DNA of 64,000 nucleotides from an uncultured Chromatiales bacterium (GCA_964448285.1 CAYUWG010000013.1:10970-74969), one strand, 5' to 3'. Counted from the stretch's first letter, positions 14,785-32,200 are shown. Numbers and translations are program-made. Notes: generated by a model not told the origin, from the sequence alone.

Positions 14785-15815
14785 CATATCCGGATCGCAT
14801 CGAAACAACTGAACAACTCGAAGATGTGATGACCATGCCCTGCGAAGAGCTTATCGCATCTATTGCGCGACTCGATGGAGATATCATGATTCTCGGTGCA
14901 GGTGGGAAGATGGGCCCTACTCTCGCACGACTCGCGCTTCGCGCAATGGATAAAGCGGAAATCGGAAAACGCGTTATCGCGGTCTCACGCTTTACGGAAG
15001 CGAGAGCCTTGCACAAGCTGAAAAAAATAGGAGTGGAAACGATCGCGTGCGATCTTCTCGAGCGATCCGCGTTAGATGCACTCCCGGATGTCGAGAACAT
15101 CATCTTTATGGCTGGAAGGAAGTTCGGTTCGACGGGAAACGAAGCATTGACCTGGGCGATGAACGCGTATTTGCCGGGCATGGTGATGCAGCGATTTGCC
15201 AGGTCGCACATCGTCGCACTTTCAACAGGAAATGTTTACCCATTCACACACGTCGCCTCAGGTGGCTCGCTTGAAACGGACTCACTTGCTCCGGTCGGTG
15301 AGTACGCACAGTCCTGCCTCGGTCGTGAAAGAATCATTCAGTATTGGTCGGAGAACAACGGGACGCCAGTGTGCATAATCCGTCTGAATTACGCGATCGA
15401 CCTGCGTTACGGAGTACTGCTCGATATCGCACAACGAGTGTGGACAAGAAGACCGGTCGATCTCCGAATGGGTTATGTGAACGTGATCTGGCAGGGCGAT
15501 GCGAACACCGCGATTCTCATGGCATTCGAGCGATGCTCACAGCCGCCTGAGGTTTTAAATATGACCGGTCCGGAGGTGATTTCCGTTCGATCGGTGGTAG
15601 AGCGTTTTGGAGCGTTGCTCGGTACCGATGCTCGGTTCGATGGCGTTGAACAATCCACCGCACTGCTTTCGAATGCATCACGATTTCATCAGGAAATGCA
15701 GTTCAAAAAACTCCCGCTTGAAACAATGCTCCAATGGACTGCGAATTGGCTCATCGCGAACGGGGAGACGTTAGATAAACCGACTCATTTCGAAGAAAGG
15801 ACAGGTGTATTTTAA
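14781..15815 (+). CDS. NAD-dependent epimerase/dehydratase family protein
   Basis: Rossmann motif ILGAGGKMGPTLARLAL near the N-terminus. Start taken at ATG 14781 (ATGA overlap with the alpha-galactosidase stop) rather than the track start 14754. Confidence 0.8.
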   Translation: MTYPDRIETTEQLEDVMTMPCEELIASIARLDGDIMILGAGGKMGPTLARLALRAMDKAEIGKRVIAVSRFTEARALHKLKKIGVETIACDLLERSALDALPDVENIIFMAGRKFGSTGNEALTWAMNAYLPGMVMQRFARSHIVALSTGNVYPFTHVASGGSLETDSLAPVGEYAQSCLGRERIIQYWSENNGTPVCIIRLNYAIDLRYGVLLDIAQRVWTRRPVDLRMGYVNVIWQGDANTAILMAFERCSQPPEVLNMTGPEVISVRSVVERFGALLGTDARFDGVEQSTALLSNASRFHQEMQFKKLPLETMLQWTANWLIANGETLDKPTHFEERTGVF

Positions 15816-15956
15816 TCAATGAATCGACGGCATTCGTCGTACATCTCATGTACTGGGAATGAAAAAGTGACCTCACGTTGTTCTTTCCTCAACTTAAACC
15901 TCGGTATCTTTGCGTCGTCCTACTCACGATCACTGTACAGTCACGAAAAACTCCTC

Positions 15957-18776
15957 ATGAAATTTCTCCTCCCCATACTCTTTCTCATTTCATTCACGTT
16001 CAATCTTCAAGCACAGGGCTTTTCCGTTAGCGGAAGTGTTTACGACGGCGTAACCGGCCAAGCGCTGAGTAGGGCGAACGTATTCATTTTCAAACTCCCT
16101 GACTCAACGCGGCGCGGAATGACTTCCGATGCGAAGGGCGGATTCACATTTCAGGACGTCGAGAAAGGACGGTACGTTCTCCGCATAAGCTTCATCGGTT
16201 ATGAAACCGTCACGCGAAACTTCCAGGTTCTTGATAAAGGGGTGAATCTCGGCCGTATCAATATGAAAGAAGACAGCATCGCCGTGAGTGAAGTGGAAGT
16301 AACCGCCCGACAACCGATTGCCGTCGTGAAAGATGACACGACGGAATTTCAAGCAGGCGCATTCAAGACCAATCCGGATGCTTCCGCAGAAGATCTCGTG
16401 AAGAAGGTTCCGGGTGTTACCGTTCAAGGCGGCCAGATTCAGGCACAAGGTGAAACGGTTCGACAGGTGCTCGTCGATGGAAAGCCTATGTTTGGCATGG
16501 ACCCAACTGCCGTTCTCAAAACTCTACCGGCAGAACTCATCGATCGCGTGCAGGTTTTCGATCAGCAAACGGAACAGGCGCAGTTCACGGGCGTGCGTGA
16601 CGGGAATGAGAGCAAAGCGATCAACCTGATCACCAAGAATGCATTCCAGAATTCCCGTTTCGGAAAGATCTATGGCGCTTACGGAAGCGACGATTTGTAT
16701 CGCGTCGGTGGAAACGTCAATTGGTTCAGCGGGAAGACGAGGCTGTCATTCCTCGGAATGTCCAATAACATCAATGAGCAGAATTTTTCGATCGAAGATA
16801 TCCTTGGCGCAACCGGTCAAGGAGGAGGCTTCGGCGGAATGTTCCGGACGGTGGTGGGCATTTTCGGTGGAGGCCGGGGAGGCGGTGCCACACGCTTCGT
16901 TGGCGGCAGCGGCGGTCGCGGTTTTGGTGGGATCAGTGATTTTACGGTGGGTCAGCAAAACGGCATCGCACAAACGCACGCCATCGGTTTGAATTATTCC
17001 GATCAATGGGGGCAGGACGTCGAACTCTCGACCAGCTATTTCTTCAACCTCAATGACAACAACGCGAGCAGCGAAACCTTTCGACAATACCTCGCCGATT
17101 CGGGACTCGTGTATGACGAGAAAAATCTCAGCGACAGCCGCAACATCAATCACCGGTTCAATATGCGCTTCGACTGGAAGTTAGACACGACGAATTCGAT
17201 TCTTGTCAGGCCGCGACTGACGCTGCAGCAAAACGAGAGTTCAAGCGATCTCAACGGAAACACGACACAGAATATTCTTCCCGTCAGTGGCACAGCGAGC
17301 ACAACGTCGAACGACTATCTCGGGATCAACTTCAGCAACGAACTCCTGTATCGGCATCGCTTCGAAGCGAAGGGACGGACATTCTCTATCAATCTTTCGC
17401 AGGGTTACAACAAAAACAGCGGTGACAGTTACCTTCTGTCGCAGAACAATTTCTTCGGCAGGACGGTGATCAGGGATACGCTGAACCAATTCTCTTCGCC
17501 GCTCACCGATGGCTGGTCACTCGGAACGGAAGTCGCTTATACGGAGCCGATCATCGAGAACAGTACGTTGGAGTTTCGTTATGAGGCATCCCTGAAACGC
17601 GATGACTCCGACCGCAGAACCTATGATTTCAACCAACTGACTTCCCTCTATGACCTGCTTGACCCGACGCTCTCAAGTACGTTCAACAGCGACTACATGA
17701 CGCATTCCGGCGGCGCTCGCTTCCAATACGACAAAGATGAGTTCAATATGAACATTGGAGCGACGTTTCAGGTCGCGAAGCTGACCGGCGATAACGTATA
17801 TCCGTTTATCAGCACGGTCGATAAGACATTCCAAAACATCCTTCCAAGCGCGCATGTCCGGTACCGGTTCACGCGTGAATCCCATCTGAGAATGTTCTAC
17901 CGCGCGCGAACGAATGCTCCAAGCATCACGCAGCTTCAGGACGTGGTGAACAACTCCAATCCTCTCCAGCTTTCGATTGGAAATCCCGATCTGAAACAAG
18001 CGTACTCGCACAACATGAACTTCATGTTCGTCGATGCGGATATTCCGAATGCGAAGTACTTCTTCGGGATGGTCGGCGGTTCGATCACCGATGACAACAT
18101 CGGCAACCATACGATCATTGCTTACAGCGACACGCTGGCGGACGGCGTCTCACTTCTGCGCGGTACGCAACTGACAAAACCGGTGAATCTCGATGGCGCG
18201 TATTCCCTTCGTTCGATGGTAACCTACGGTTTCTCATGGCCGCTCATCTCATCGAACCTCAATCTCAACGCGATGGCGAATGTCAGCCGCTCACCGGGTC
18301 TCATCAACAACGAGTTGAACTACACGCTTTCACCTACGTTTACGCTCGGTGCTGTGGTCAGCAGCAACATCAGTCCGGAAGTCGATTTCACCATCTCGTC
18401 CCAATCCATCTACAGCATCGTGGATAATTCCTTGAGAAAGGAACTCAACACAGAGTACTTCATGCAGAACACGAGTCTGAAATTGAACCTGATTTTCCTC
18501 GGCGATTTCGTATTCTCGACGGATCTCAATCACCAGCTCATCAACGGACTTTCCTCCGATTACAACGAGCGAACCATGCTCTGGAATATGAGCATCGGAC
18601 GGAAGTTCTTCGACAATACCATCGATGCACGGTTGGTCGTGTTCGATTTGCTGAAGGAGAACAACAACATCTCCCGTAACGTGACGGACGTGTATTTCGA
18701 GGACGTTCGTTCGAATGTCTTACAGCAGTACTTCCTCTTCCAGGTAACCTACAACCTGAAGATGTTTGGCGGCTGA
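15957..18776 (+). CDS. TonB-dependent receptor / outer-membrane beta-barrel protein with N-terminal CarboxypepD_reg-like domain
   Basis: Signal peptide MKFLLPILFLISFTFNLQAQ, then the SGSVYDGVTGQALSRANVFIF...GRYVLRISFIGYETV carboxypeptidase-regulatory-like fold, then a long beta-strand-rich barrel. Track start 15819 rejected (non-signal-peptide extension). Confidence 0.8.
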   Translation: MKFLLPILFLISFTFNLQAQGFSVSGSVYDGVTGQALSRANVFIFKLPDSTRRGMTSDAKGGFTFQDVEKGRYVLRISFIGYETVTRNFQVLDKGVNLGRINMKEDSIAVSEVEVTARQPIAVVKDDTTEFQAGAFKTNPDASAEDLVKKVPGVTVQGGQIQAQGETVRQVLVDGKPMFGMDPTAVLKTLPAELIDRVQVFDQQTEQAQFTGVRDGNESKAINLITKNAFQNSRFGKIYGAYGSDDLYRVGGNVNWFSGKTRLSFLGMSNNINEQNFSIEDILGATGQGGGFGGMFRTVVGIFGGGRGGGATRFVGGSGGRGFGGISDFTVGQQNGIAQTHAIGLNYSDQWGQDVELSTSYFFNLNDNNASSETFRQYLADSGLVYDEKNLSDSRNINHRFNMRFDWKLDTTNSILVRPRLTLQQNESSSDLNGNTTQNILPVSGTASTTSNDYLGINFSNELLYRHRFEAKGRTFSINLSQGYNKNSGDSYLLSQNNFFGRTVIRDTLNQFSSPLTDGWSLGTEVAYTEPIIENSTLEFRYEASLKRDDSDRRTYDFNQLTSLYDLLDPTLSSTFNSDYMTHSGGARFQYDKDEFNMNIGATFQVAKLTGDNVYPFISTVDKTFQNILPSAHVRYRFTRESHLRMFYRARTNAPSITQLQDVVNNSNPLQLSIGNPDLKQAYSHNMNFMFVDADIPNAKYFFGMVGGSITDDNIGNHTIIAYSDTLADGVSLLRGTQLTKPVNLDGAYSLRSMVTYGFSWPLISSNLNLNAMANVSRSPGLINNELNYTLSPTFTLGAVVSSNISPEVDFTISSQSIYSIVDNSLRKELNTEYFMQNTSLKLNLIFLGDFVFSTDLNHQLINGLSSDYNERTMLWNMSIGRKFFDNTIDARLVVFDLLKENNNISRNVTDVYFEDVRSNVLQQYFLFQVTYNLKMFGG

Positions 18777-18799
18777 CATTTAGCAATCTCTGAAAGAAA

Positions 18800-18826
18800 A
18801 AAGGGCGCGATGAGCGCCCTTTTCGT
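18800..18826 (+). terminator. rho-independent terminator after the TonB receptor gene
   Basis: aaaaaaGGGCGCgatgaGCGCCCttttcgtttt: a GC stem followed by a T-run, 25 nt after the stop. Confidence 0.6.
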
Positions 18827-18844: not shown

Positions 18845-18895
18845 ATTCAATGGAGCACCTTGCGCGAGAGAGCGTCGTTGTTTTGGTTGCTATGC
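18845..18895 (-). repeat. terminal partial attC-like site (R''/L'' half only), end of cassette array
   Basis: gagagagcgtcgttgttttggttGCTATGCgatg closely matches the stop-proximal half of the other inter-cassette elements (gagcgccgtgttgccgtttGCTATGCgctcg). It sits 13 nt 3' of the restriction-endonuclease stop. No matching core-proximal half is present. Confidence 0.4.
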
Positions 18896-18908
18896 GATGT
18901 GGTGGCGT

Positions 18909-19598
18909 TCAGCCTCGTTCAAGTCGCTGAATCTCGCTGTTGATCTGAATGAGCACTTCGGGATTGCCGATCTCCCCGTCTAGACTGAAAACAATGAAAA
19001 CCTTTCCGCCATACGTTTGAGTAAATTCTTCAAAGCTGGCTTTCATGCGCTCGGAGAGCGAATACCCACCGAAATTTGCTTTTGCGGTAACAGGTTTGAT
19101 TTGAATCCCGAAAGCCTTGTCTCCTACCCATCCTAAGTAGTCTATGTCCCCCGCATGATCCAGTTGAGGCGATGACTCTTCAAACGTGATGGATGGAAAC
19201 TTCTTGCTCAGACCATCAGTGACGACGGACTTCTCAGTGACATAACCGTCGTAGGTACGGTTAATTGTGAGATTGTAAATGAAATCGATGCAGTCGTCGA
19301 GAGTTAGTGTTCGGAATGCCTCTTGCCATTCCGGAATAAGGAACTCGGTAATCTTGGTATACAGCCGTTCACCAAGCTCTTGCAAACTTTCCTTTGTAAC
19401 CTTGTGCGGAACCTTCGTTTTTGTATGAGCGTGCTCAAAGTACCACTGTTCCCATTCCTTGAATGTCTTGGGTTGACACTCCCTAATGAGAGCCATTACC
19501 TCGCCGACCTTGTGTGTCTTTGTAAGACCCCATTTCCCATTCGCATAGTTCAAGACCATTTCTTTGGTCCCAAAATCCTTGGAGTATTTTTTAGGCAT
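18909..19598 (-). CDS. putative type II restriction endonuclease (PD-(D/E)xK-like), partner of adjacent methyltransferase
   Basis: 229-aa ORF starting at ATG 19598 (track start 19673). ATG overlaps the MTase stop by 8 nt (ctgcATGCCTAA), i.e. translational coupling. Candidate D...(Q/E)xK element GDIDYLGWVGDKAFGIQIKP. Confidence 0.45.
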   Translation of the reverse strand: MPKKYSKDFGTKEMVLNYANGKWGLTKTHKVGEVMALIRECQPKTFKEWEQWYFEHAHTKTKVPHKVTKESLQELGERLYTKITEFLIPEWQEAFRTLTLDDCIDFIYNLTINRTYDGYVTEKSVVTDGLSKKFPSITFEESSPQLDHAGDIDYLGWVGDKAFGIQIKPVTAKANFGGYSLSERMKASFEEFTQTYGGKVFIVFSLDGEIGNPEVLIQINSEIQRLERG

Positions 19599-20904
19599 GC
19601 AGTCCTGATGTTGGCTGAATAATAGTGAAGGCGAGAAACTTGTCCTTGTATTTGTAAGTGCGAACAACGTCAACGTTAACGAAGCCTGACTTGATCAAGT
19701 GTGCGTTCAGGAATGTCTTATTCTTGAGGTAAACGTAGGACAACAGAATCCCGTTCTCGTCATGTTTGTCCTTGTCGAATCTCAGGAAGACCCTCTGACC
19801 CTTCATCTTGGAATTCAGGAACTCCATAGCCTCTTCTCGACGTCTTGGCTCTTCGGCTACTCCAATAAGCCTGATCGTAAGCCCGTTGTTGAGTTTGAGA
19901 AGTTCAGGGCTGAGGATCTCCGTTACGTTATACAACTCGGCTCTTTCTCCATTATCGCCGTTCTCGATCTTCGAGCCGAACTTCAGCTTTCGAGGATCAA
20001 CCTTCTTGTCCAACTCGTGCGGGTCAGTAAACCTGTATGGAAGGGATTCAATGTCCTTGTCTAAGTTCTCGTGTGCCTGTTGTTGAGTAACGAAATCACA
20101 GGAGGCATCACCGAATATATCATGCTGGGAAATCTTCAATTTATTCTTGATAATTGGAGCGAATGAAGGGTTTATTTCATAGCCGATGGAATTCCTGCCG
20201 AGGTTCTTTGCGGCAAGCGATGTCGTTCCGCTTCCAAGAAAAGGATCAAGGACGGTATCGCCGACGAATGAAAACATTCGAATCAATCGCCGGGGAAGTT
20301 CTTCGGGAAACATTGCTAAGTGCTTGTCTTGGCGTTCGCCAGCAAAGTTCCAGTGCCCGGCAAAATAGGTATTCCATTCGTCTGTTGTGAGTTTGGAAAG
20401 TTCCTTCATCTCTTTGCTGACTTTTGGCGGGTCACCTAACTTCTTGAATATGAGAATGAACTCGTAATCAATCTTCAGGATGCCATTTCTTGGGTAAGGA
20501 AATGAACCCATTATTGAGGCACCACCGGTCGTGTTGGTTGTCGTTACCTTTTGCCAAATAATGGCGCCCATGTAGTCCATTCCGATGGTCTCACAGAACT
20601 TAGTAATCTCCGTCCTAATCGGGATAACCTTGTAACGCCCGTAATAAACGGAGCGGGCGAACTGGTCGCCGATATTGATGCAAAGCCGGCACCCTTTATG
20701 GAGAACCCGAGAGGACTCCTTCCACACAAGATTCAGATTGTTGATATAGCTTTCGTACGTATCGTGAAAGCCTATCTGTTTCTCGTCCCCATAGTCTTTG
20801 AGTTGCCAGTACGGCGGCGAAGTGATAACAAGGTGAACGGATTCTGCTGCGATTTCTGTCATTCGCCTTGCATCGCCGATTACTATTTTGTGATGGGTGG
20901 CCAT
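19591..20904 (-). CDS. beta-class N4-cytosine/N6-adenine DNA methyltransferase fused to a C-terminal SNase-like (thermonuclease-fold) domain
   Basis: Motif IV VITSPPYWQLKDYG precedes motif I VLDPFLGSGTTSLAAKNLGRNSIGYEI (beta-class order). C-terminal ~140 aa (LTIRLIGVAEEPRRREEAMEFL...YVYLKNKTFLNAHLIKSGFV) aligns with the staphylococcal-nuclease fold. Start moved to ATG 20904 (MATHHKIVIGDARRM). Confidence 0.85.
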   Translation of the reverse strand: MATHHKIVIGDARRMTEIAAESVHLVITSPPYWQLKDYGDEKQIGFHDTYESYINNLNLVWKESSRVLHKGCRLCINIGDQFARSVYYGRYKVIPIRTEITKFCETIGMDYMGAIIWQKVTTTNTTGGASIMGSFPYPRNGILKIDYEFILIFKKLGDPPKVSKEMKELSKLTTDEWNTYFAGHWNFAGERQDKHLAMFPEELPRRLIRMFSFVGDTVLDPFLGSGTTSLAAKNLGRNSIGYEINPSFAPIIKNKLKISQHDIFGDASCDFVTQQQAHENLDKDIESLPYRFTDPHELDKKVDPRKLKFGSKIENGDNGERAELYNVTEILSPELLKLNNGLTIRLIGVAEEPRRREEAMEFLNSKMKGQRVFLRFDKDKHDENGILLSYVYLKNKTFLNAHLIKSGFVNVDVVRTYKYKDKFLAFTIIQPTSGLHA

Positions 20905-20976
20905 ACTTCCTGAACCAATGTACTGAATCTCAATCACATTTGCTGGTTCTTTGCGCAAGAGAAACGCCACCAGTTC

Positions 20977-21266
20977 ACCTAATGCTCAGCGCAAGTACGC
21001 CGCTGTTATTGCCGTTCAGGAACGATACGTCGGAAGCCGCTTCGACGCATTTCTTCGCTGTTGGAACCACAAACCAATCCGTGAGCAAATCCGTTGAGTA
21101 GCCACAACTATCCTTCCTAAGCTTCAACCAAGCCATATCAACAAGTGAGCGCCGTTGTATTCGCTGCTTTGTGCCTTGTGCCTTCTACCACAACTTTACA
21201 TTTAGCCAAACCTTCATTCAACATCGCCAATAAAACGTGCGAGCGCCGTGTTGCCGTTTGCTATGC
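20977..21266 (-). repeat. attC-like inter-cassette element A (contains an internal tandem duplication of the stop-proximal arm)
   Basis: Left end ACCTAAT is a degenerate complement of the GTTAGGT core. The body has two tandem copies of ..accacaact..catatcaacaagtgagcgccgttg... Right end GCTATGC lies 28 nt before the rsgA stop. Similar to elements B, C and D. Confidence 0.5.
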
Positions 21267-21294
21267 GCTCGTGAGCGGCGGCCGCTTAGGTCTA

Positions 21295-22371
21295 TCAAGA
21301 CGAAGGTTTTCGCTTCTTAAGCTGTTCCACTGCAGTCTTTATCATTCGCCCAAATTGCTTGTCCTTCTTGCGTCTTTCGACGTAGGTCATCTCGTGGAAT
21401 TGGGATTCCCTGATCAATTTCATGTAACTCCGATACTTAGCTTCGCTTAGAGAGCCACTCTGAACCGCCACTAAGATCGCACAACCGACTTCGACAGAGT
21501 GCGTGCAATCATTGAACCGGCAGCGGTTCGAAAGTTCGTGGATATCAGAGAAACTGTCGTCAATACCGACGCTAACGCCCATCAATCCCAGTTCCCTCAT
21601 GCCTGGAGTGTCAACCAAAAGTGCTCCGCTGTTTAGGACTGTCATCTGTCGGCGCGCCGTCGTATGTCTTCCTCTGCTATCCTTTTCACGAACGGGATTC
21701 GTTTCGAATGCCTCGCAACCGAGAAGATGATTGAGAAGTGTGGTTTTGCCCACGCCAGAGGACCCAAGCAAGCAATATGTTTTGCCATGTTGCAGAGCCT
21801 GCCTGACTCTGTCGAGGCCCGTTTCAGTTTTGCTGCTGAATGCGATGATCCTTGTATTGATTTGTGCGTCTCGGATATCTGATATCCGTTTCTCCAATTC
21901 CTCGGCGCTGATGAGATCGCTTTTGCTAAGCAAAATGACAGGCTCGACATGGCCTTCATTGACCATTACGAGATATCGCTCCAACCGGCGGAGGTTGAAA
22001 TTGAGATCGCACGATTGCATGATGAAGGCGACATCGATATTCGAAGCGATCATCTGGTATTCAACTTTGTCACCGGCGGACTTGCGACGCAAGAAGGTTC
22101 TTCTTGGGAACATGTCATGAATGATTGCGAGTGTGCCGTCATTGTGGTACTGAACGAATACCCAGTCCCCGACGCATGGGAGCTCCTGGGTTGAGTCGGC
22201 AGAATAGAGGAGCTTGCCCGTTGGCTCCGCTTGAACTTCATTGTGCTCGTCGCGAACGAGGTATCGGTCTCTATCGACTCTTGTGACGCGCGCGATAGTG
22301 CAGTCTTGTAACGCAAGCCCCGCACGTTTCTCTTCAAACCAATTATCAAATCCGAGATCTTCTAGCTGCAT
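21295..22371 (-). CDS. rsgA: ribosome small-subunit-dependent GTPase A (RsgA/YjeQ family), cassette-borne copy
   Basis: N-terminal OB fold, circularly permuted GTPase with G1 LLGSSGVGKTTLLNHLLG and VDTPG, and a C-terminal zinc finger CRFNDCTHSVEVGC. Confidence 0.85.
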   Translation of the reverse strand: MQLEDLGFDNWFEEKRAGLALQDCTIARVTRVDRDRYLVRDEHNEVQAEPTGKLLYSADSTQELPCVGDWVFVQYHNDGTLAIIHDMFPRRTFLRRKSAGDKVEYQMIASNIDVAFIMQSCDLNFNLRRLERYLVMVNEGHVEPVILLSKSDLISAEELEKRISDIRDAQINTRIIAFSSKTETGLDRVRQALQHGKTYCLLGSSGVGKTTLLNHLLGCEAFETNPVREKDSRGRHTTARRQMTVLNSGALLVDTPGMRELGLMGVSVGIDDSFSDIHELSNRCRFNDCTHSVEVGCAILVAVQSGSLSEAKYRSYMKLIRESQFHEMTYVERRKKDKQFGRMIKTAVEQLKKRKPSS

Positions 22372-22416
22372 TTGGTGTCCTAAGTATAGTCAGTAAACAA
22401 GGCCGCTGCCCATGGC

Positions 22417-22619
22417 GCCTAACATTTAGCGCAAGGACGCCACTGTTTTTGCCTTTCAGAAATGCCGCGCACGGAGCCGCTATCAATAGACTAATTTCTT
22501 GCGGCGAAGTGCGCATACCAACTTGCGGCAAAAACCGTTGAGCGACCACAACTATTTTTCCCCACAGCTTTAACTGAGCCATATAAACAAATGGGGCGGC
22601 GTGGTTACGCCTGTTATAC
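22417..22619 (-). repeat. attC-like inter-cassette element B
   Basis: Plus strand begins GCCTAAC (complement of the canonical core GTTAGGC) 45 nt upstream of the rsgA ATG and ends GTTATAC 28 nt before the peptidase stop. The arms are mutually complementary (gcgcaaggacgcc / ggcgtggttacgc). Confidence 0.55.
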
Positions 22620-22646
22620 GAAAAATGCCACAAAGCCTTTCTCATT

Positions 22647-24065
22647 CTAATAGCGTTTCACGATGTCATCAATGGAGACTCCTTCAATCAGGAGTTGAGA
22701 AGATTCTATTCCATAGATCCACTCTTGGAAGAAATCACGAAGATCCCGGCTCGAGACGCGCTCGCAAAGTTTATAAAACTCTTGAAAGTTGATGACGCGA
22801 CCTTTGAACTCCAGAAGCATGGTTCGAATGATCGTCCTAAAGGTGCTTTCTCCAACGAGGCGATACAAAACATACAGGGACCAGGCGCCCTTCGTGTACG
22901 AATGCCTGCCGAGTTCTTTCGCCCCGTAGCCGGCAATCGGCGTTTCAAAAACTTGTCGGTCATACTCCGCCCATCGCACAAAGAGATCTCGACTCTTTTC
23001 CATGTCTTCCTCAAAAGCTGCCTCACCGCGAAATGCCCGGATTGCCAGAGCCTCAAAAAACGTCGCAAACGCCTCGTCGAAGTACCGACACCGCTGCACA
23101 TCTGCCGACGGTGTCGCATTCCATGAGTGTCCGATCTCGTGATAGGCTTCGGAAATTCTCGTACTGTCTTTGAATGCGGCCGCCGTTTGCAGGAAGTAGT
23201 AGTCGCTGGCTTGCGAACCCCATCCATCCGGAATTTCTATAATGGAATATCCCTTGAAGCTTTCGGGTAAGCCGAACATTTCGCTATAGAGCTTGATGAC
23301 GTCTTTCGAGGCGTTCATGACTAACCTCGCTCCGATGCTGTCCTCAGGCAGGTGATACACAACGAGTTGATCGGTCGGATTACTCAGAACTGTGAACTTT
23401 GCCACGGCAACGTCGATGCGCCACGTTGGTATCTTGCTTCGGAATACGAACGTTGCATTCTCTGAGTCGATCTGTGAATCGACCAACTCTCCCCCGCAGG
23501 CCGCACGGTAATCCGCCGGAACGGTTGCGGTTACTTCGTATGTGAATTTCGTGTCATTGGACGCTAAGGTACTGGCGAATGTCGGCTTGGCAAGGATCGG
23601 ATAGGCAAACGCGTCGGGACGTAGTAGAGAGTAGTTCTCATCTATCCGGTCCCTAACGTATGCCATCACTTCCGGATATCCGAAGATGAATCCATCGTAT
23701 TCCAAGACAACGGTCGTCGTGTCGTTAGGTCGAAGCGGAGTACGAAGGTTGACGATAACTTCTCTGGCCTGAAGAGAAGGTTCATCACGAAGTTGACCGA
23801 TATCCTGTTTGAAGTGGAGCGGTGTGCCGGTGCGATCGCTTACCTGTTTAACTTCAAGCAATCGGTACAGCAGAAAGGGGAGTTGCGCGTGTGGCTGATC
23901 GGTGATATTGCGTATTGAAAGCGTTGCCAAAATGGAGACGCGCTGCTCTCTGAGGTGAAATTGCACATTGAGTTTGTAGTGCACAACGGCAGGAAGGTCT
24001 GAAGCAGTCGCCGAAGTCATTTCGCAAAGAGAAACAAGTACAGTGATAAGGAATAGCCTTCTCAT
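22647..24065 (-). CDS. secreted M1-family-like gluzincin metallopeptidase
   Basis: Signal peptide MRRLFLITVLVSLCEMTSATA. HEIGHSWN...(18 aa)...E zinc-binding HExxH-x18-E motif. Start taken at ATG 24065 with an aaaggag RBS; the track start 24095 is TTG. Confidence 0.7.
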   Translation of the reverse strand: MRRLFLITVLVSLCEMTSATASDLPAVVHYKLNVQFHLREQRVSILATLSIRNITDQPHAQLPFLLYRLLEVKQVSDRTGTPLHFKQDIGQLRDEPSLQAREVIVNLRTPLRPNDTTTVVLEYDGFIFGYPEVMAYVRDRIDENYSLLRPDAFAYPILAKPTFASTLASNDTKFTYEVTATVPADYRAACGGELVDSQIDSENATFVFRSKIPTWRIDVAVAKFTVLSNPTDQLVVYHLPEDSIGARLVMNASKDVIKLYSEMFGLPESFKGYSIIEIPDGWGSQASDYYFLQTAAAFKDSTRISEAYHEIGHSWNATPSADVQRCRYFDEAFATFFEALAIRAFRGEAAFEEDMEKSRDLFVRWAEYDRQVFETPIAGYGAKELGRHSYTKGAWSLYVLYRLVGESTFRTIIRTMLLEFKGRVINFQEFYKLCERVSSRDLRDFFQEWIYGIESSQLLIEGVSIDDIVKRY

Positions 24066-24099
24066 GTGTCGGGCTCCTTTCGTGTCAATTTTCAAATGA

Positions 24100-24295
24100 C
24101 GTTTGCAGCAACAACGTAGCGGTTTATGCCGCTCAAAGATGAGCGCCGAAGGGAGCTATCAAAGGACCAATTCTCGGCGCGCGTAGGCGCAAGACCAACA
24201 CGCGGCAATAACAATGGATAGACCACAACGACCTTTTCCATAGCCTTAACTGCGCCCTATCAACAAAGGGAGCGCCGGTGTTACTGCTGTTATGC
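24100..24295 (-). repeat. attC-like inter-cassette element C (core-proximal 7-mer apparently deleted)
   Basis: Right end GTTATGC (24289-24295) contains the TAA stop of the HNH gene on the opposite strand. The body is similar to element B. At the left end, the cataacgt found at the same position in element D is missing (aatgacg---tttgcagc). Confidence 0.5.
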
Positions 24296-25189
24296 GTTCG
24301 TTGGTTTGCCGCGCTTCTTCCATTGTTCCTTCTTGAGCCTCTTCTCGAGTCTCTTGTGGCATCTGTCGTGTAAAAGGATAGCATGTGTAAGATCGTCAGT
24401 CTTACCACCTTTGGCGTGCGGAATGATGTGATGTGATGACGAATCACCAAATCGCATCTGTTTGCCGCATTCGCCACACAGTCCATTTTGGCGAAAAAAA
24501 AGAAGTCGTTTTTGCTCAGCATCATGCAGTCGGTCGGGGTCCCTGACAATAATGGGGTGAAGCCTTTTGAATTCTTCTATCATGATCCCAAGGCGATTTG
24601 TCAATGACTCAGAAGTTGTCAAGATTTTCGACTCTTGCTTGAACTGCTTATATCGTGAGAACAATTTTTTGGTCATGCCAGGTGGTGGGTCAACCTCGTA
24701 GAGCGAGAAGCTATTAAGGTTTCTTAGAAATTCCTTGCCAAATTCGAACAACTCATTTAACAACTGTGAATTGTCAGCACGCTGCTTTCTGAGCCATGAT
24801 ACAAGCAGATAGAAAGCAATCGATTCCCTGGGTGAGAAGGCCGTAAGCATCAGGTTGAGAGATGAATGAAGAACATCTAGATTGCCGATGAAGGCTTTGA
24901 CCTTCTTTGCAGGAATCTTCTTTTGGTATGACTTGACCCCCTTGACAAGCGTGTGGAGTTCTAGGTCAGGGAAGACTCTTCTTTGAAAATCACCTTCAAG
25001 TTCGATTAGCAGCATCTCGGCGGCAAGTTGTCTCCACCTGAATCGTTTGTCTTTTCCAAGAAGTGTAAAGAACTTATGTGTCTCACGGGTGTTCTTAAAG
25101 GTATCTTTGAATAGACCGCGATGAGCGCTGATCTTTTCTGCCTTGTTAAGTGGTGTGCCTTCCCTGTAAGCGTAGAAAGGTTTGAACAA
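24290..25189 (-). CDS. HNH endonuclease domain protein (DUF1524-like), C-terminal half of a GmrSD-like type IV restriction module
   Basis: GLCGECGKQMRFGDSSSHHIIPHAKGGKTDDLTHAILLHDRCHKRLEKR is an HNH motif. Overlaps the upstream DUF262 ORF by 44 nt in another frame. Confidence 0.7.
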   Translation of the reverse strand: MFKPFYAYREGTPLNKAEKISAHRGLFKDTFKNTRETHKFFTLLGKDKRFRWRQLAAEMLLIELEGDFQRRVFPDLELHTLVKGVKSYQKKIPAKKVKAFIGNLDVLHSSLNLMLTAFSPRESIAFYLLVSWLRKQRADNSQLLNELFEFGKEFLRNLNSFSLYEVDPPPGMTKKLFSRYKQFKQESKILTTSESLTNRLGIMIEEFKRLHPIIVRDPDRLHDAEQKRLLFFRQNGLCGECGKQMRFGDSSSHHIIPHAKGGKTDDLTHAILLHDRCHKRLEKRLKKEQWKKRGKPTNA

Positions 25190-25589
25190 TGTCTTCTTCC
25201 TTGCTCTCTGGATCGTGACTTTTCAGCTTCAAGTAGAATACGCAGTATGCGTCAAGTAGAGTCTTGTCTGGAAAGTCTAGATGAGAGTACTTGGTAATGT
25301 CCGTATCATCAAGGTCGAGTTTATCCAATAGGTAGTTATGGATAGCGAGTAGTCTCTGTTGACCGTCCAAAACCTCATACTGGCCGTGTTCGTTCACAAA
25401 AAGGACAAGGACACCTATGGAATAACGATTAATGATGGACCTGATAAGCTCGATTTTCTGGGAGTGTTTCCAAATATCCCCCCGCTGGTACTCCTGGTTG
25501 ATGAAAATCTTTCCGGCGTCGAACAACTTTGGGATTTGGGCAAGGACGAACTTGTCAAAGTGTATGTCAGGAACAGTTTGTTTAGGCAT
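25146..25589 (-). CDS. DUF262 (ParB-like nuclease fold) protein, N-terminal half of a GmrSD-like module
   Basis: Conserved VLDGQQRLLAIHNYL (the DGQQR motif of DUF262). 147 aa, shorter than a complete DUF262 domain. Confidence 0.7.
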   Translation of the reverse strand: MPKQTVPDIHFDKFVLAQIPKLFDAGKIFINQEYQRGDIWKHSQKIELIRSIINRYSIGVLVLFVNEHGQYEVLDGQQRLLAIHNYLLDKLDLDDTDITKYSHLDFPDKTLLDAYCVFYLKLKSHDPESKEEDIVQTFLRLQGRHTT

Positions 25590-25628
25590 AGTTCCTCAGT
25601 AGTCTAAGTCAAGCGGCAAACCAATGAC

Positions 25629-25755
25629 GCATAACGTTTTGCAGCTACCCGAAGGTTTTAGAAGCACTAAACTGTCAATCTGCACTAAAGCTGAATAGAA
25701 GCACGAACCTTCAATTAACCACGTCACCGCCACTTTTGGGTAGGTGCTGTTATGT
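25629..25755 (-). repeat. attC-like inter-cassette element D (127 bp, best-preserved palindrome)
   Basis: Plus strand GCATAACgttttgcagCTACCCgaagg ... GGGTAGgtgctGTTATGT. The arms are reverse-complementary (L'/L'' gcagctaccc / gggtaggtgctg). It ends 12 nt before the stop of the 153-aa gene and 39 nt before the DUF262 ATG. Confidence 0.55.
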
Positions 25756-25768
25756 GTAGTTTTTCTTG

Positions 25769-26185
25769 TCATTCGTCAATCTGAATTTCATAGGTCTTAC
25801 CATCTTCTCCATATACTGTTGCAGTACCATCTTCATCAATATCAGCATATGAAATATGGTCTTCGTTTAAGTAGCCGTCATTTGGGAAGTTAATTTGAAC
25901 GACTTGACAGTCTTGAACATCAACGTCAAGCGTGTATGTTGCAGAGTATCCTGTTTCAGGATTATTGTAGTCGACAGTTGCTGAATAAGTTCCATCTTCA
26001 AATTTACAGTCTGATTTATACTCACTTGTTCCATCGCTCTCATCATTATTTTCATCTTCATAATCAGACGAATTTGAATATGAACTTGAATTATCGCTTC
26101 TTTTTTTGTTCTCCGATTTCGAGGAGCAAGAAGACATTTGACTAATTAAAGTCAGAAAGCAAATAAAAATTATTGTCTGTTTCAT
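25769..26185 (-). CDS. small acidic lipoprotein (hypothetical)
   Basis: Signal peptide MKQTIIFICFLTLISQMSSCSS (lipobox). D/E/S-rich mature region. Gene is AT-rich. Start chosen at the internal ATG that begins the signal peptide. Confidence 0.5.
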   Translation of the reverse strand: MKQTIIFICFLTLISQMSSCSSKSENKKRSDNSSSYSNSSDYEDENNDESDGTSEYKSDCKFEDGTYSATVDYNNPETGYSATYTLDVDVQDCQVVQINFPNDGYLNEDHISYADIDEDGTATVYGEDGKTYEIQIDE

Positions 26186-26192
26186 AAATATA

Positions 26193-26615
26193 TTATTCAA
26201 ATATTTTGTCATACCATTTGGATACGTCATCCCTTATTAAATCGTAATACTTGTAAATTATTAATGCTAAGTCGAAGTCAGCACGTTTGGCTTTATACTC
26301 GTTTACTGTAAAGTATCCATAAAAATTACCTTCTTTGTCAACAACAACAGGCGGATTAGTCCCATAAGCATTCCAAGGCGAATTTGAATTATATTCATTG
26401 CCATATGTTCCGTATTCATTCCAAATGGATTTTGAATTATAGCTATTTCCATAGGTTCCATATTCGTTCCATATAGAATTATTATCATAGCTATTGCAAT
26501 TTAAGCAACCAAGATATTCATCGTGATTCTGTCCGCCATATAAGTGCAAAGTTTGAGCATACGTTGTTGTCTCAAAAGCAACAATTAGAAAAAGAAAAAA
26601 AAGTGTTTTGTTCAT
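26193..26615 (-). CDS. small secreted protein with SIWNEYGTYGN tandem peptide repeats (hypothetical)
   Basis: Signal peptide MNKTLFFLFLIVAFETTTYAQ. Three tandem repeats SIWNEYGTYGN(S/E)YNS. AT-rich. Start at the internal ATG. Confidence 0.5.
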   Translation of the reverse strand: MNKTLFFLFLIVAFETTTYAQTLHLYGGQNHDEYLGCLNCNSYDNNSIWNEYGTYGNSYNSKSIWNEYGTYGNEYNSNSPWNAYGTNPPVVVDKEGNFYGYFTVNEYKAKRADFDLALIIYKYYDLIRDDVSKWYDKIFE

Positions 26616-26700
26616 ATTCTTTCGTTTTACTGGTTCGTTAAAATTACACATAACTACCGTAAGTACGAACACCTTCGCATATACTGCCAATATAGGCGGA

Positions 26701-26720
26701 TAAACGAACATGTTCGTTTA
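26701..26720. repeat. perfect 20-bp palindrome TAAACGAACATGTTCGTTTA overlapping the intI-fragment stop codon
   Basis: Read directly from sequence: 9-bp arms and a 2-nt centre. Located between the recombinase fragment and the first cassette. Candidate recombinase-binding/attI-like site or terminator hairpin. Confidence 0.5.
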
Positions 26721-27251
26721 TTTCGATCCTGTAAGAACAGCCGTGTCTAATGGACTGACGATCTTGCCAAGCGACTTCTTGCTTACGTGCGTATAATTCT
26801 CCGTCGTCTTCGAGCTGGCGTGACCGAAGAGTTCCTCTATGTACCGGAGGCCAGTCCCGGCTTCCAGAAGGTGTGTCGCAAAAGCATAACGCCGGCTGTG
26901 AACTATGACTTTCTTGCGAATCCCCGCAGCAGCGACAGCCCGCTCGAAGACGTACTGGACACTCCGTTCCGACAAGTGCTTCCTGCCGTCCGCGCCTTCG
27001 AACAAGTACTCCATCGGCTGGCAGGTACAGAAAGACTCGCGCAACGGCTCCGAGGCAACGTAGGAGAGAAGGGAGTACATGTCCTTTATTCCTTTCGAGC
27101 CATGCAGGTGCAGGAGCATTCGTTTGCTGTGGCTGTGTTTCCTCAACCTCATCTCTCTCTCCACTGTCTCGAAAAACTTGTCGGCCATGTGTGGCCCCTG
27201 TGCAGGTTCAACAATCAGTTGTTGCAACGTTACGGAAAGAGTCACTTTCAA
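26718..27251 (-). pseudogene. 5'-truncated tyrosine recombinase with integron-integrase-like C-terminus (intI remnant)
   Basis: Catalytic C-terminal region HSRRYAFATHLLEAGTGLRYIEELFGHASSKTTENYTHV (HxxR...Y), followed by VSPLDTAV as in IntI1 (VRSPLDAL). GSKGIKDMYSLLSYVASEPLRESF is comparable to IntI1 [23 protein letters not shown]. Only about 177 aa are present, with no N-terminal domain and no upstream ORF. Confidence 0.65.
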
Positions 27252-29245: not shown

Positions 29246-32200
29246 TTATCTGGCAAGAATCAGTTTCTGTGTGCTGATGGACTGTCCATCGTTGAGCGAA
29301 ATGAGGTAGAGACCGCTCGGCAAATCCGATGGAGGCGTGAAGAAGAGCGAGTGCGAACCCGCTTCGAGATTGCCGCGATAGACGATTGCGACTTCGCTGC
29401 CGAGTTGGTTGAAGACCTTAAGCTCGACGAACCGCGTCGTCGGAATGGTCACTCCGATTTCCGTGCGCTGCGGTCCGTTCTGCGAAAGGACGTTCGGACG
29501 CGGTGCGGCGAGAGGATTGATGCCAAGGTCGGCCAACGTCGTCACACCGTCGCGCGCTTTCACGGCAATCGTATCGTCGCAACTCTCATCGAGCGTGACG
29601 AGTGCGAGTGACGGTTGAAATTCCGCATTCGTAATGGAGAAGCCTGCTTGCGCCGTTCTTCCGACGAGCACTTCCATTTGAACGCGCGTCAATTCACCTT
29701 CAACGAATGGAGCGCGAGAAACGGTAACGCGAATGCGATCGGGAGCGACGCGCTTGAATGTCGCTTCGCCCTGCAATGAGACGACCTGGCGCGGGCTGAG
29801 CGAATACACGTTGAAGCGCACGTCGAAATTCAATTCGAGATTGGGCGCCGTGCATTCAAGACCGCTGCGGAGGAACACCGGAATCTCGACCACGTCGCCC
29901 GGTCGTCCGGTGAGTGCGGCAGAGCCGCCTGTGACCGAGCTGCAACTGATCGTGACTTCCGGTTCTGACAGGAGAATCATCAACGGCACGATCGCTTCAT
30001 AGCGACATCGAGTGTCCATCGCACGAAGCACTGCGGTTGTCGATTGGTTCGCATTCGGTGTGTACCGCACCGTCACCAACGAACTGGATCCCGGTTGGAT
30101 CGTCAAGGTTTTGCTGCTGTCCACCAGCGAGAACGCTGCCGATCCTTCGACCGATAGCGCGAACGTCGTGATCGTAGTCCCGTTGTTTACCAGTCTCGCC
30201 TGCATCTCAACCGGTTCGTTGGAACACGTCGAGATTCCCTTAACGGTGTCTTGTGCGAATTGGTATTTCACGCGAAGCACACGACCCGCAAAAGGAACAG
30301 CGGCTACTTCAGGGAGACATCGCTGATCGCGGACGATAATGAAGTTCACAGAGCCATTGAAGAAACTCAATGCGCTGTCGATCGGCGGAGTCAACCCGAA
30401 CGTAATCGTTTGCGAAGCGCCGGGCGCGAGTCCGAACACGGAGTCGATCGGTGAGAACAAGCGGATCGGAGAATTGGAGGGTTTGATCAACGCTCCGATC
30501 GTCAGCGGAGTCGTTCCCGTATTCCGAACCTCGATTGTCGTCGTGAGGCGCTCGATATCCTCGTCACGCACGTTTCCACCGGGGCATACGGTAATGTCAT
30601 TGAACGTCGCTTCACCCGGTGTGACGGTGAACGCCGTATGCCGGAGTATCACCGATATCGGGAAGGAAATACTCCCGTCGCACGGCGCGGACGACAATGT
30701 AACGACGCCGCTGTACGTTCCGGGATTCGTCTCGACGAATCGAATACCGAGGTCCTTCGACTCTCCTGACTGCAACGTGAATGGGAATTGTCCCGGCGGG
30801 TCATATGCGAAGCCGAGCGGAAGAACCGAGCCATCGGTGATGGTGATGGGATCGGAGCCGGTGTTGTTCACTGTCGCTTTGAGTTGCTTCGATAGCGGTG
30901 TTTCGCAAGTCAGAACATCAAGCGGCGGAGTGACATCCGTGACTGAGAACTGCGGCTTTACTCCACGCCCACGCACGACGAAGGTAACGGGCTGGAGACA
31001 CACGTCGTCGGTGAAGATCAGGTTCGCCGAATGCTGTCCGGTTGCCGTAGGATTGTATCGAATCGGGAAAGCTTTCGATTGGCCTGCTCCAACGGTGACT
31101 CTGAACGGCGATGCGAGAAAGGCGAACGGCGATCCGACCGGCAATGGAGAAGAAGTAACGTTCAAGGTTTTATCACCCGTGTTCGCGATCACGAACATGC
31201 GGGTGGATGAACTATTGAGACAGACGTCGCCGAAGTCTGCTGATGCGTCCTCCTCCCGGACGAGATAGCCGGGTTTGTATCGCTCACCGATGAGAGCGAC
31301 GGGAAGCGTTTGCGTGCATATTCCACCGGAGCCTGCAAGGACGTTGAGGTACAACGAATCGACGAACGGACCGCCTGTTCCGAGTCGCGCCTGCACGGAG
31401 ATATCCAATCGTCCAAGAGAAGGAACCGCAACACCCTGCGACGGGAAGGGCGTTGCTCCCTGGAAGATGGAGTAACGCACAATCGGTGCCGACGCTGTAA
31501 CGGTGATCGGGAGGGGGCTGTTGTTCTGAAGCGTAATCGTTTGCACCGGCGTGCTCGATCCCGAACCGCAGTCCGTTATCACGCCGAAGTCGATCTGACC
31601 GGGAGTGAGCGTGACGCGGGGAAGAACGCGCTCACCCGACAGCGAGAAATAGACGCTCGTGCCGCACGGTTCACCGAACCATTGAACGCTTCCACCGAAC
31701 TGGTTTCCTTCACCAGTCGGTGGATTGAACAGGATATATCCATCGAACGGATTCCCGGCGCCCGGTACGATGACGATAGGCAAGGTGATCGTCGAGTCCC
31801 ATTCGAATCCCGACGGCAGATCCGGAAGTGAACGGAAAATTGCCGGCGCAGTGCCGGTGTTCGTGATGGTCACTCGGATTTTTGCATTCGGTTCACAGTT
31901 CACGAGAGTGACTGATGTGGGGTTGATGTTCGAAGCGAGGAGTTGCTGGCTGAAAGTATGTCCGCGAAGAGCAACGGTAGCGCTCAGGTTGCAGAGATTC
32001 GAGGCGATCGTGAGGGTCTGGTTGAACGCACCGCTCGTTACAGGGTGAAAGCGAATCGCAATGATTTTTTCCTCACCTGCTTTGAGCTGGAAAACGTTGT
32101 TGAACGCGTCGATCTCGAACGGTGCAGCGATGGTTAGTGTCATCTGCATGTCCGCAGTCCCGTTATTGACGATACGGAGTGATTTCGGTGCAGAGTATCC

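Follow-up and report, generated by a model that had tools for sequence, protein, structure and literature searches.

A decayed gene-cassette array beside the remnant of a short IntI-like recombinase gene: a probable integron-type fossil in an uncultured bacterium

A dead recombinase gene, an attI-like site and five gene cassettes

The 64,000-nucleotide stretch of DNA analysed here (GCA_964448285.1, CAYUWG010000013.1:10970-74969, filed under an uncultured Chromatiales bacterium; hereafter the window) carries on its minus strand, from position 27188 to 18849, the remnant of a tyrosine recombinase gene followed by five co-oriented gene units (18849-26653), which are accompanied by intergenic elements resembling attC, the recombination site of integron cassettes. 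We propose that the region is the fossil of an integron-type gene-capture platform with a decayed cassette array, a reading that we hold with a probability of about 80%. An original prediction, made from the sequence of the window, had described a degenerate inverted-integrase integron loaded with defence genes; what it observed is confirmed, the five same-strand units and their intergenic elements being present at near-identical coordinates (element C starts at 24094 and the terminal site at 18849), while its interpretation is partly supported.

The gene at the head of the array (26718-27188, minus strand) encodes 156 amino acids (aa) of an IntI-like tyrosine recombinase and is dead, as revealed by its alignment with the intact gene of L004 (loci and contigs from other assemblies are numbered with the prefix L), a syntenic locus with the same DUF2279 and 2113-aa protein neighbours, in which the recombinase has 284 aa and is 82% identical at the protein level. 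The window gene retains its promoter region, its ATG at 27188 and its 19 initial codons intact, after which a 384-bp in-frame deletion at an ACAGC microhomology has removed residues 20-147 of the 284 (128 codons), that is, the core-binding domain and the first catalytic arginine (the one in AGLRVGE). Moreover, family-invariant positions are substituted (R165M, H229Y, D241G, Q246E and L249F). The gene had been taken for a truncated intI-like gene spanning 26718-27251; it is IntI-like and defective, but it is not truncated at its 5' end, its open reading frame (ORF) running from 27188 to 26718 around an internal deletion and the TTG at 27251 being spurious. With 82 bits against TIGR02249, the integron integrase model of NCBIfam, versus 76 bits against XerC, the fragment could not be assigned to one or the other, and full-length relatives were used instead. 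The window encodes no further tyrosine recombinase.

An attI-like site (26646-26717, minus strand) starts directly after the stop codon of this gene. It is composed of a 14-bp palindromic box (ACGAACATGTTCGT, 26704-26717), a related second box (GCGAAGGTGTTCGTACTTAC, 26659-26678) and a GTTATGT core (26648-26654). Homology between the window and L004 ends just after GTTATGT, beyond which L004 carries an ion-channel gene and unrelated cargo; the comparison of related genomes suggested by the original prediction has thus yielded an intact gene, the same attI and different cargo at this locus. The same layout recurs in L004, L009, L011, L014 and L023; from one genome to another, changes in one half of the palindrome are accompanied by changes in the other. 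The site would function as the attI adjoining the integrase gene. Regarding L014 (9974-11300), which belongs to a 'Chlorobiaceae' metagenome-assembled genome (MAG) and is the closest reference-genome relative, its recombinase gene is pseudogenised by an in-frame stop in the AGLRV motif, hence unusable as an intact comparator, and is followed by the same attI layout and then by a small cassette. Decay of these systems, whose recombinases are short as described below, seems common.

The five cassettes, all on the minus strand, differ strongly in GC content (34, 46, 50, 50 and 47% from the first to the fifth). Cassette 1 (25635-26653, 34% GC) holds two small secreted or lipoprotein genes (26615-26193 and 26185-25769) and attC D (25629-25755); the first of these genes contains three 48-nt tandem repeats (26359-26502) encoding WNxYGTYGN-type repeats, and its product matched no family in Pfam or NCBIfam. 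Cassette 2 (24100-25634) comprises a GmrSD_N/DUF262 plus HNH nuclease gene, frameshifted into two parts (25589-25146 and 25189-24290) with an identical split in the independent assemblies L001 and L006, and attC C (24094-24295). Cassette 3 (22423-24099) combines the gene of a secreted M1-family-like metallopeptidase with a HEIGH motif (24065/24095-22647) and attC B (22417-22619), while cassette 4 (20983-22422) associates an RsgA-type GTPase gene (22371-21295) with the composite element A (20977-21266). Finally, cassette 5 (18849-20982) contains an intact type II restriction-modification (R-M) pair, formed by an N4/N6 methyltransferase with a staphylococcal-nuclease-like tail (20904/20970-19591) and an MjaI-family endonuclease (19598-18909), and ends with a terminal attC half-site (18849-18895) that abuts the terminator of a TonB-receptor gene (18797-18823), as had been reported.

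The cargo is less uniformly defensive than predicted. The R-M pair is clearly recognised by the PADLOC defence models (601 and 312 bits), the methyltransferase, which has a C-terminal nuclease-like domain (Pfam SNase), matching one type II methyltransferase model from end to end (601 bits). The N-terminus of the GmrSD/NsnA-like protein reaches 64 bits, but a frameshift disrupts its gene; the RsgA-like protein has no more than marginal matches to defence models (LeoA, mad8, mad3 and PDC-S01; 13.9-15.9 bits), and the PADLOC models recognise neither the peptidase nor either of the small secreted proteins. As the cassette GTPase (21295-22371) passes the RsgA equivalog cutoff (TIGR00157: 166.8 bits versus 100), it would be a housekeeping-type ribosome-biogenesis gene travelling as a cassette. 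The GC content of the array is below that of its flanks, as had been noted (46% versus 48% on the left and 54% on the right), but this average conceals cassettes ranging from 34 to 50%; the low value of cassette 1 relative to the 48-54% of the host suggests that it was imported.

The array recurs in at least three independent metagenome assemblies and is therefore fixed in that population. Judged by homologues of its Mfd protein, the host belongs to the uncultured Bacteroidota/Ignavibacteriae; outside its own population, identity does not exceed 61-64%. The locus is adjoined by the gene of a 2113-aa repetitive surface protein (29246-35587), whose C-terminus resembles a secretion-sorting tail and which is kept in the syntenic loci L004, L006 and L007.

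Architecture of the attC-type sites and of the cassette junctions

Read on the coding strand, the elements follow the pattern (G/A)YATAAC-A-L'' ... L'-(4-5 nt)-GTTRRRY. In agreement with the core motifs initially described, (G/A)YATAAC lies beside the preceding stop codon, and GTTAGGC, GTTATGC or degenerate variants lie 35-52 nt before the next start codon. A3 (the full-length part of element A), B and C, of about 200 nt each, are mutually homologous (nhmmer E 1e-57 to 1e-64), and the only additional nhmmer matches of this long element in the 64-kb window are the 5'-end remnant A5 and the terminal site. None of the elements matched Rfam 15, even at E values up to 10, the region yielding terminator-like noise alone. 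Element B (203 nt) reads GTATAAC-AG-GCGTAACCACGCC ... GGCGTCCTTGCGC-TAAAT-GTTAGGC, and C (202 nt) has a degenerate R' core (GTCATTT). Element A is a composite, in which a remnant of about 85 nt (A5, 21183-21266) retaining only the R''/L'' side is joined to A3 (20977-21174), which is full length and has mutated cores (ACAAAGC and ATTAGGT); the terminal site (18849-18895) is likewise a half-site with the R''/L'' side only. Element D (127 nt), ACATAAC-A-GCACCTACCC ... GGGTAGCTGC-AAAAC-GTTATGC, belongs to a separate attC sequence family that has only the terminal architecture in common with A3, B and C, so that the similarity claimed for all elements holds within the long type but does not extend to D. 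Sites of the D type are also found in arrays of Flavobacterium, Arundinibacter and L011. Folded as single-stranded DNA, D forms a bulged hairpin from end to end (z = -2.3).

A covariance model (R1) was built from an alignment of 27 attC-like sites harvested from arrays in other genomes. In this training set, R and L stems drawn by hand are 78.6% paired, versus 31-40% in slid controls. Run on the window with filters off, R1 returned exactly three significant full-length matches, all on the minus strand, namely C (32.2 bits, E 9e-6), B (27.5 bits, E 1e-4) and D (23.9 bits, E 6.5e-4), the next best having E > 4; A3 scored only 5.6 bits, which fits its mutated cores. The spacers are conserved and asymmetric, with 1 nt between R'' and L'' (an invariant A) versus 4-5 nt between L' and R', the invariant A standing opposite a C beside the R box. 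Elements B, C and D possess the features by which attC sites are recognised, that is, R''-L''...L'-R' imperfect palindromes, RYYYAAC/GTTRRRY cores and a structure conserved over sequence. The default attC size limit of IntegronFinder is 200, a value straddled by elements of 196-203 nt.

In integron arrays, the bases located 3' of the crossover point (G|TT...) belong to the next cassette and therefore complement the R'' arm of the next attC. This is the pattern found here: 14 of 18 positions are complementary at the junction from attI to D (7 of the 11 distal ones), 13/18 from D to C (distal 6/11), 13/18 from C to B (distal 9/11), 10/18 from B to A3 (distal 7/11) and 12/18 from A3 to the terminal site (distal 9/11). 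The chain linking each R' arm to the R'' arm of the following site is the unique maximum among 720 possible assignments, and a distal match of 9/11, seen twice, has a chance probability of about 1e-4 each time. This chain of complementarity marks the crossover at G|TT, and the predicted cassette boundaries lie inside the R' core. The organisation in ORF plus attC cassettes put forward by the original prediction thus finds support in both an independent covariance model and a permutation test of junction complementarity.

The long attC type is not peculiar to the window. A search with a conserved block from B and C brought up 19 metagenome contigs, which contain 56 R1 matches in same-strand arrays, with scores up to 82 bits (17 matches in 13 kb in L103, 10 in L106 and 6 in L094). 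In L110 a recombinase of the family lies upstream of, and co-oriented with, the R1-matched sites; L102 and L109 have the same arrangement, with a single site detected in each. Among 41 of the metagenomic sites, the L stem is 98.6% paired, with compensatory changes in 9 of 11 pairs, and the outer R positions are paired in only about 50-75%, as expected because R' is shared with the neighbouring cassette. Predicted de novo by RNAalifold from 16 long copies including B and C, the consensus structure comprises the R box, a 12-bp L stem, another stem of about 14 bp and two stems at the apex, and 29 of its 45 pairs keep pairing through changes on both sides. The 5' arm of the long type bears an inserted segment of about 60 nt, which has a conserved sequence and is largely unpaired (TTGTTGATAKGGCTCAGTTRAAGCT...GTTGTGGTCGCTC; 22520-22590 and 24200-24270 in the window, and L094-L112); it could be a site for an accessory protein or a promoter. 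The cargo of L103 (SnoaL, HAD, a methyltransferase, a nuclease and unknowns) is the usual mix of a cassette array.

A recombinase family without the IntI-specific segment

Full-length relatives of the window recombinase have 284-310 aa. Seven intact relatives score 222-242 bits against the integron integrase model TIGR02249 (cutoff 265), matching it in two stretches that skip profile positions 179-232, 153-168 bits against NF011946 (cutoff 435) and 175-195 bits against the XerC/XerD models (cutoffs about 330); the XerA-type model NF040815, named 'tyrosine recombinase/integron integrase' by NCBI, gives 218-236 bits and its cutoff of 220 is narrowly passed by six of the seven. The best PDB match by sequence is VchIntIA (E 7e-45), followed by XerA (E 2e-36). 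Alignment proceeds in two blocks, query 2-180 with IntI4 2-180 and query 196-276 with IntI4 238-318, leaving about 42 residues missing in the intact relatives, which correspond to IntI4 181-237 and which we take to be roughly the IntI-specific I2 segment. An AlphaFold2 model of an intact relative (pLDDT 80) shows at this gap a 15-residue loop without extra helix, and its best Foldseek match is 2A3V (VchIntIA, E 2e-16). In an exhaustive profile search, each of the best 150 cluster representatives matches without interruption. Most of these representatives are 340-400 aa or longer, with 80-130 extra N-terminal residues that could reflect miscalled start codons or a real extra domain.

The insertion is treated as defining and essential for integron integrases (PMC7790495, PMC8138268, PMC2426708). 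The inserted helix is considered to dock the flipped-out bases of the folded attC and to block the second strand exchange. As the relatives are devoid of about 42 residues and remain below the NCBI cutoff for IntI, the system appears to be without the integrase with an IntI-specific additional domain that characterises integrons in the strict sense. The inverted-integrase type assigned by the original prediction is hence right as to orientation, the gene being co-oriented with the cassettes, but not as to the enzyme, which is no canonical IntI. In the comparisons above, the family is most similar to integron integrases, albeit without the inserted segment thought to be specific to them.

A scan of reference genomes recovered more than 600 members of this family. 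The nearest are found in the 'Chlorobiaceae' MAG (71%), Melioribacter (63%) and an Ignavibacteriota MAG (61%), and others in Nitrospirae, Bacillota, Gemmatimonadota, many Bacteroidota and Archaea (L018, L025 and L057). In L009 (a 4.5-Mb contig), L010 and L011, an intact short recombinase is followed by co-oriented arrays of small genes, and L009 provides sites of textbook type, e.g., GCCTAAC-A-ACCGCAAAAAAGACG...CGACTTTTTTGCGGT-GGAC-GTTATGC. A regular-expression attC finder located 47 same-strand sites in 341 kb of downstream sequence versus 1 and 5 in 623 kb upstream, counts that are lower bounds as the finder misses CATAAC-type cores and short sites (e.g., in L027 and L014). On 76 loci outside the training set, R1 gave 14 matches, every one of them downstream and co-oriented; the complete Desulfitobacterium sp. 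Sab5 genome accounts for six.

A footprint of activity is visible in L009, where the first cassette after attI is a 241-nt, 100%-identical copy of the third one. The identity starts exactly at GTTATGC and stops exactly at ...GACGTTA, between unrelated flanks. Such an exactly bounded copy indicates that the cassette was recently copied to the attI-proximal position, a behaviour that defines integrons.

Two side observations concern these arrays. L010 contains three IS110-family transposase genes within the array downstream of its intact short recombinase (10952-17560); some IS110/IS1111 elements target attC sites. Furthermore, very many recombinase contigs among L018-L093 stop within about 1.5 kb downstream of the gene, which suggests that assemblies break at a repeated or strain-variable array and that arrays are under-represented in MAGs.

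Competing explanations and the place of short integrases

The integron-type platform that we favour builds on the architecture of the sites, the logic of the junctions, the dead gene and the association of the family with arrays, all of which are observed. In the mechanism we envisage, a recombinase gene would have had its own attI on the same strand at its 3' side, and promoterless cassettes, each ending in a folded and imperfectly palindromic attC, would have been inserted successively at this attI via crossover at the G|TT of the GTTRRRY core. In this way the array would have grown to five cassettes of different origin (GC 34-50%). The recombinase gene would then have lost 128 internal codons and gained inactivating substitutions, freezing the array, and decay of some attC cores, of one attC half and of the GmrSD-like gene would have followed. 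We call the array a fossil on account of the dead gene, the composite element A with its mutated cores, the terminal half-site and the frameshifted GmrSD-like gene. The short recombinase, rather than a canonical IntI encoded elsewhere, may have moved the cassettes, and the attC sites would have reacted as folded single strands.

Several points weigh against this interpretation. The evidence is comparative throughout and concerns loci rather than whole genomes; a canonical IntI could be encoded elsewhere in these genomes. The bulged hairpin that each element had been expected to form is seen in D but not in the long sites: the fold of B is stable (z = -2.2) with termini unpaired in the minimum-energy structure, and C does not outperform shuffled sequence in folding energy. 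Single-sequence thermodynamics alone is weak evidence regarding attC sites, and comparative structure was relied upon in its place. The covariation of the R1 training set, in which 10 of 11 L pairs are altered on both sides, is partly built in, since harvesting required L-box complementarity. Finally, a hand tally of family loci with 5 kb or more of downstream sequence found no site in about half of them, so that the association holds for part of the family or the models miss divergent sites.

These last loci without sites could also be expected if the array were an ordinary integrase-less attC cluster (CALIN, a category of IntegronFinder) made by a canonical IntI located elsewhere or since lost, the short recombinase being a Xer-like bystander. 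Such was the conclusion drawn by Cury et al. (2016) in 21 comparable cases (PMC4889954), the I2 helix has been described as essential (PMC7790495, PMC8138268), and canonical complete integrons have been reported in Chlorobi and Ignavibacteriae. Position and orientation are nevertheless too regular for a bystander, with 14/14 model matches in untrained loci, and 47/53 of those heuristic matches that are upstream or on the same strand, lying downstream on the recombinase strand; a conserved attI-like site with a GTTATGY core begins at the stop codon, the homology of the window with L004 stops at that core, the recent cassette copy of L009 sits at attI, and the window contains no other recombinase. 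We consequently judge this explanation unlikely. Markedly less probable still are tandemly accreted integrative or Xer/dif-type modules recombined as double-stranded sites. The recombinase does have the length of Xer proteins, lacks an I2 helix and passes NF040815, a XerA-type model, and its attI bears palindromic boxes of the double-strand type. However, dif-type sites are about 28 bp, whereas those described here are imperfect palindromes of 127-203 nt with RYYYAAC/GTTRRRY cores, whose arms vary while pairing is kept, and the units hold one or two genes and no recombinase of their own.

That the elements are repeats akin to repetitive extragenic palindromic (REP) sequences or miniature inverted-repeat transposable elements, or shared regulatory leaders, unrelated to recombination, would account for their intergenic, palindromic and repeated nature and for the sequence-conserved block of about 60 nt in the long type. 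It is largely refuted, and the least probable of these explanations, given that the 64 kb contain no further copies and Rfam no match, that the elements, co-oriented without exception, accompany a single recombinase family in different phyla, and that junction complementarity and exact cassette duplication are unexpected of REPs or leaders. A phage or island integrase with att repeats was also considered and rejected.

Compared with known systems, the array shares with sedentary chromosomal integrons, such as the Vibrio cholerae superintegron, cassettes of one or two genes, attC sites with RYYYAAC/GTTRRRY cores and paired L boxes, crossover at G|TT with the distal R' arm in the next cassette, an attI beside the recombinase gene, a homogeneous attC family typical of the host, a mixed cargo including R-M genes and an unequal GC content among cassettes. 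It differs from them by a recombinase without about 42 residues (IntI4 181-237), a gene that points the same way as the cassettes and has attI at its 3' end, spacers of 1 nt and 4-5 nt, and a main attC of about 200 nt, one arm of which contains a conserved 60-nt insertion. In inverted-integrase integrons of the Treponema denticola type, intI has the same direction as the cassettes, as here (PMC4889954), but these integrases were selected for the IntI additional domain (PMC2426708), which is absent from the present family. Archaeal XerA and bacterial XerC-XerD resolvases have the same length, a two-domain architecture and no insertion, and the XerA-type NF040815 is passed; yet the family is closer to VchIntIA in sequence and predicted fold, scores far below the XerC/XerD cutoffs and occurs in the context of cassette arrays. 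In archaeal integrons, attI lies immediately downstream of intI, as here, and 6 recognisable IntIs have been reported for 539 attC sites (Ghaly et al., 2022, PMC9668308); their IntIs carry the additional domain (PMC9668308), unlike those of the short family. As the IntI test of IntegronFinder is a profile of the specific insertion (PMC4889954), the window array and those beside intact short recombinases would most likely be filed as CALIN, although they consistently come with a specific recombinase family and an attI-like site.

Contrary to the statement of the original prediction that integrons are poorly documented outside Proteobacteria, integrons of Chlorobi, Ignavibacteriae and Bacteroidota, as well as R-M and defence cassettes, have already been published (PMC9024848, PMC8618304, bioRxiv 10.1101/2024.07.02.601686). 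What is new is the short integrase: a full-text literature search of partial coverage brought up no account of an IntI-like family that lacks the insertion and heads attC arrays. We tentatively suggest, at slightly less than even odds, that short IntI-like recombinases without the I2 insertion are working and previously unrecognised integrases of a widespread integron class. This class would be defined by an intI co-oriented with the cassettes, an attI at the 3' end of intI and attC sites of up to about 200 nt, and would extend over Bacteroidota/Ignavibacteria, Nitrospirae, Bacillota, Desulfobacterota-type bacteria and possibly Archaea.

Taken alone, the array of the window is an ordinary decayed integron, and its importance resides in the family to which it points. 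Integron integrases are currently defined and detected by their inserted helix, while a short family without this insertion heads co-oriented attC arrays across phyla. If the short enzymes are active, present detection tools undercount integrons outside Proteobacteria, where many integrase-less attC clusters would be complete integrons, and models of the evolution of attC recombination would become directly testable with natural proteins. It would also follow that capture at folded attC sites needs no I2 helix, or that the sites are handled differently, and the short family could then represent the ancestral, pre-I2 state of integron integrases.

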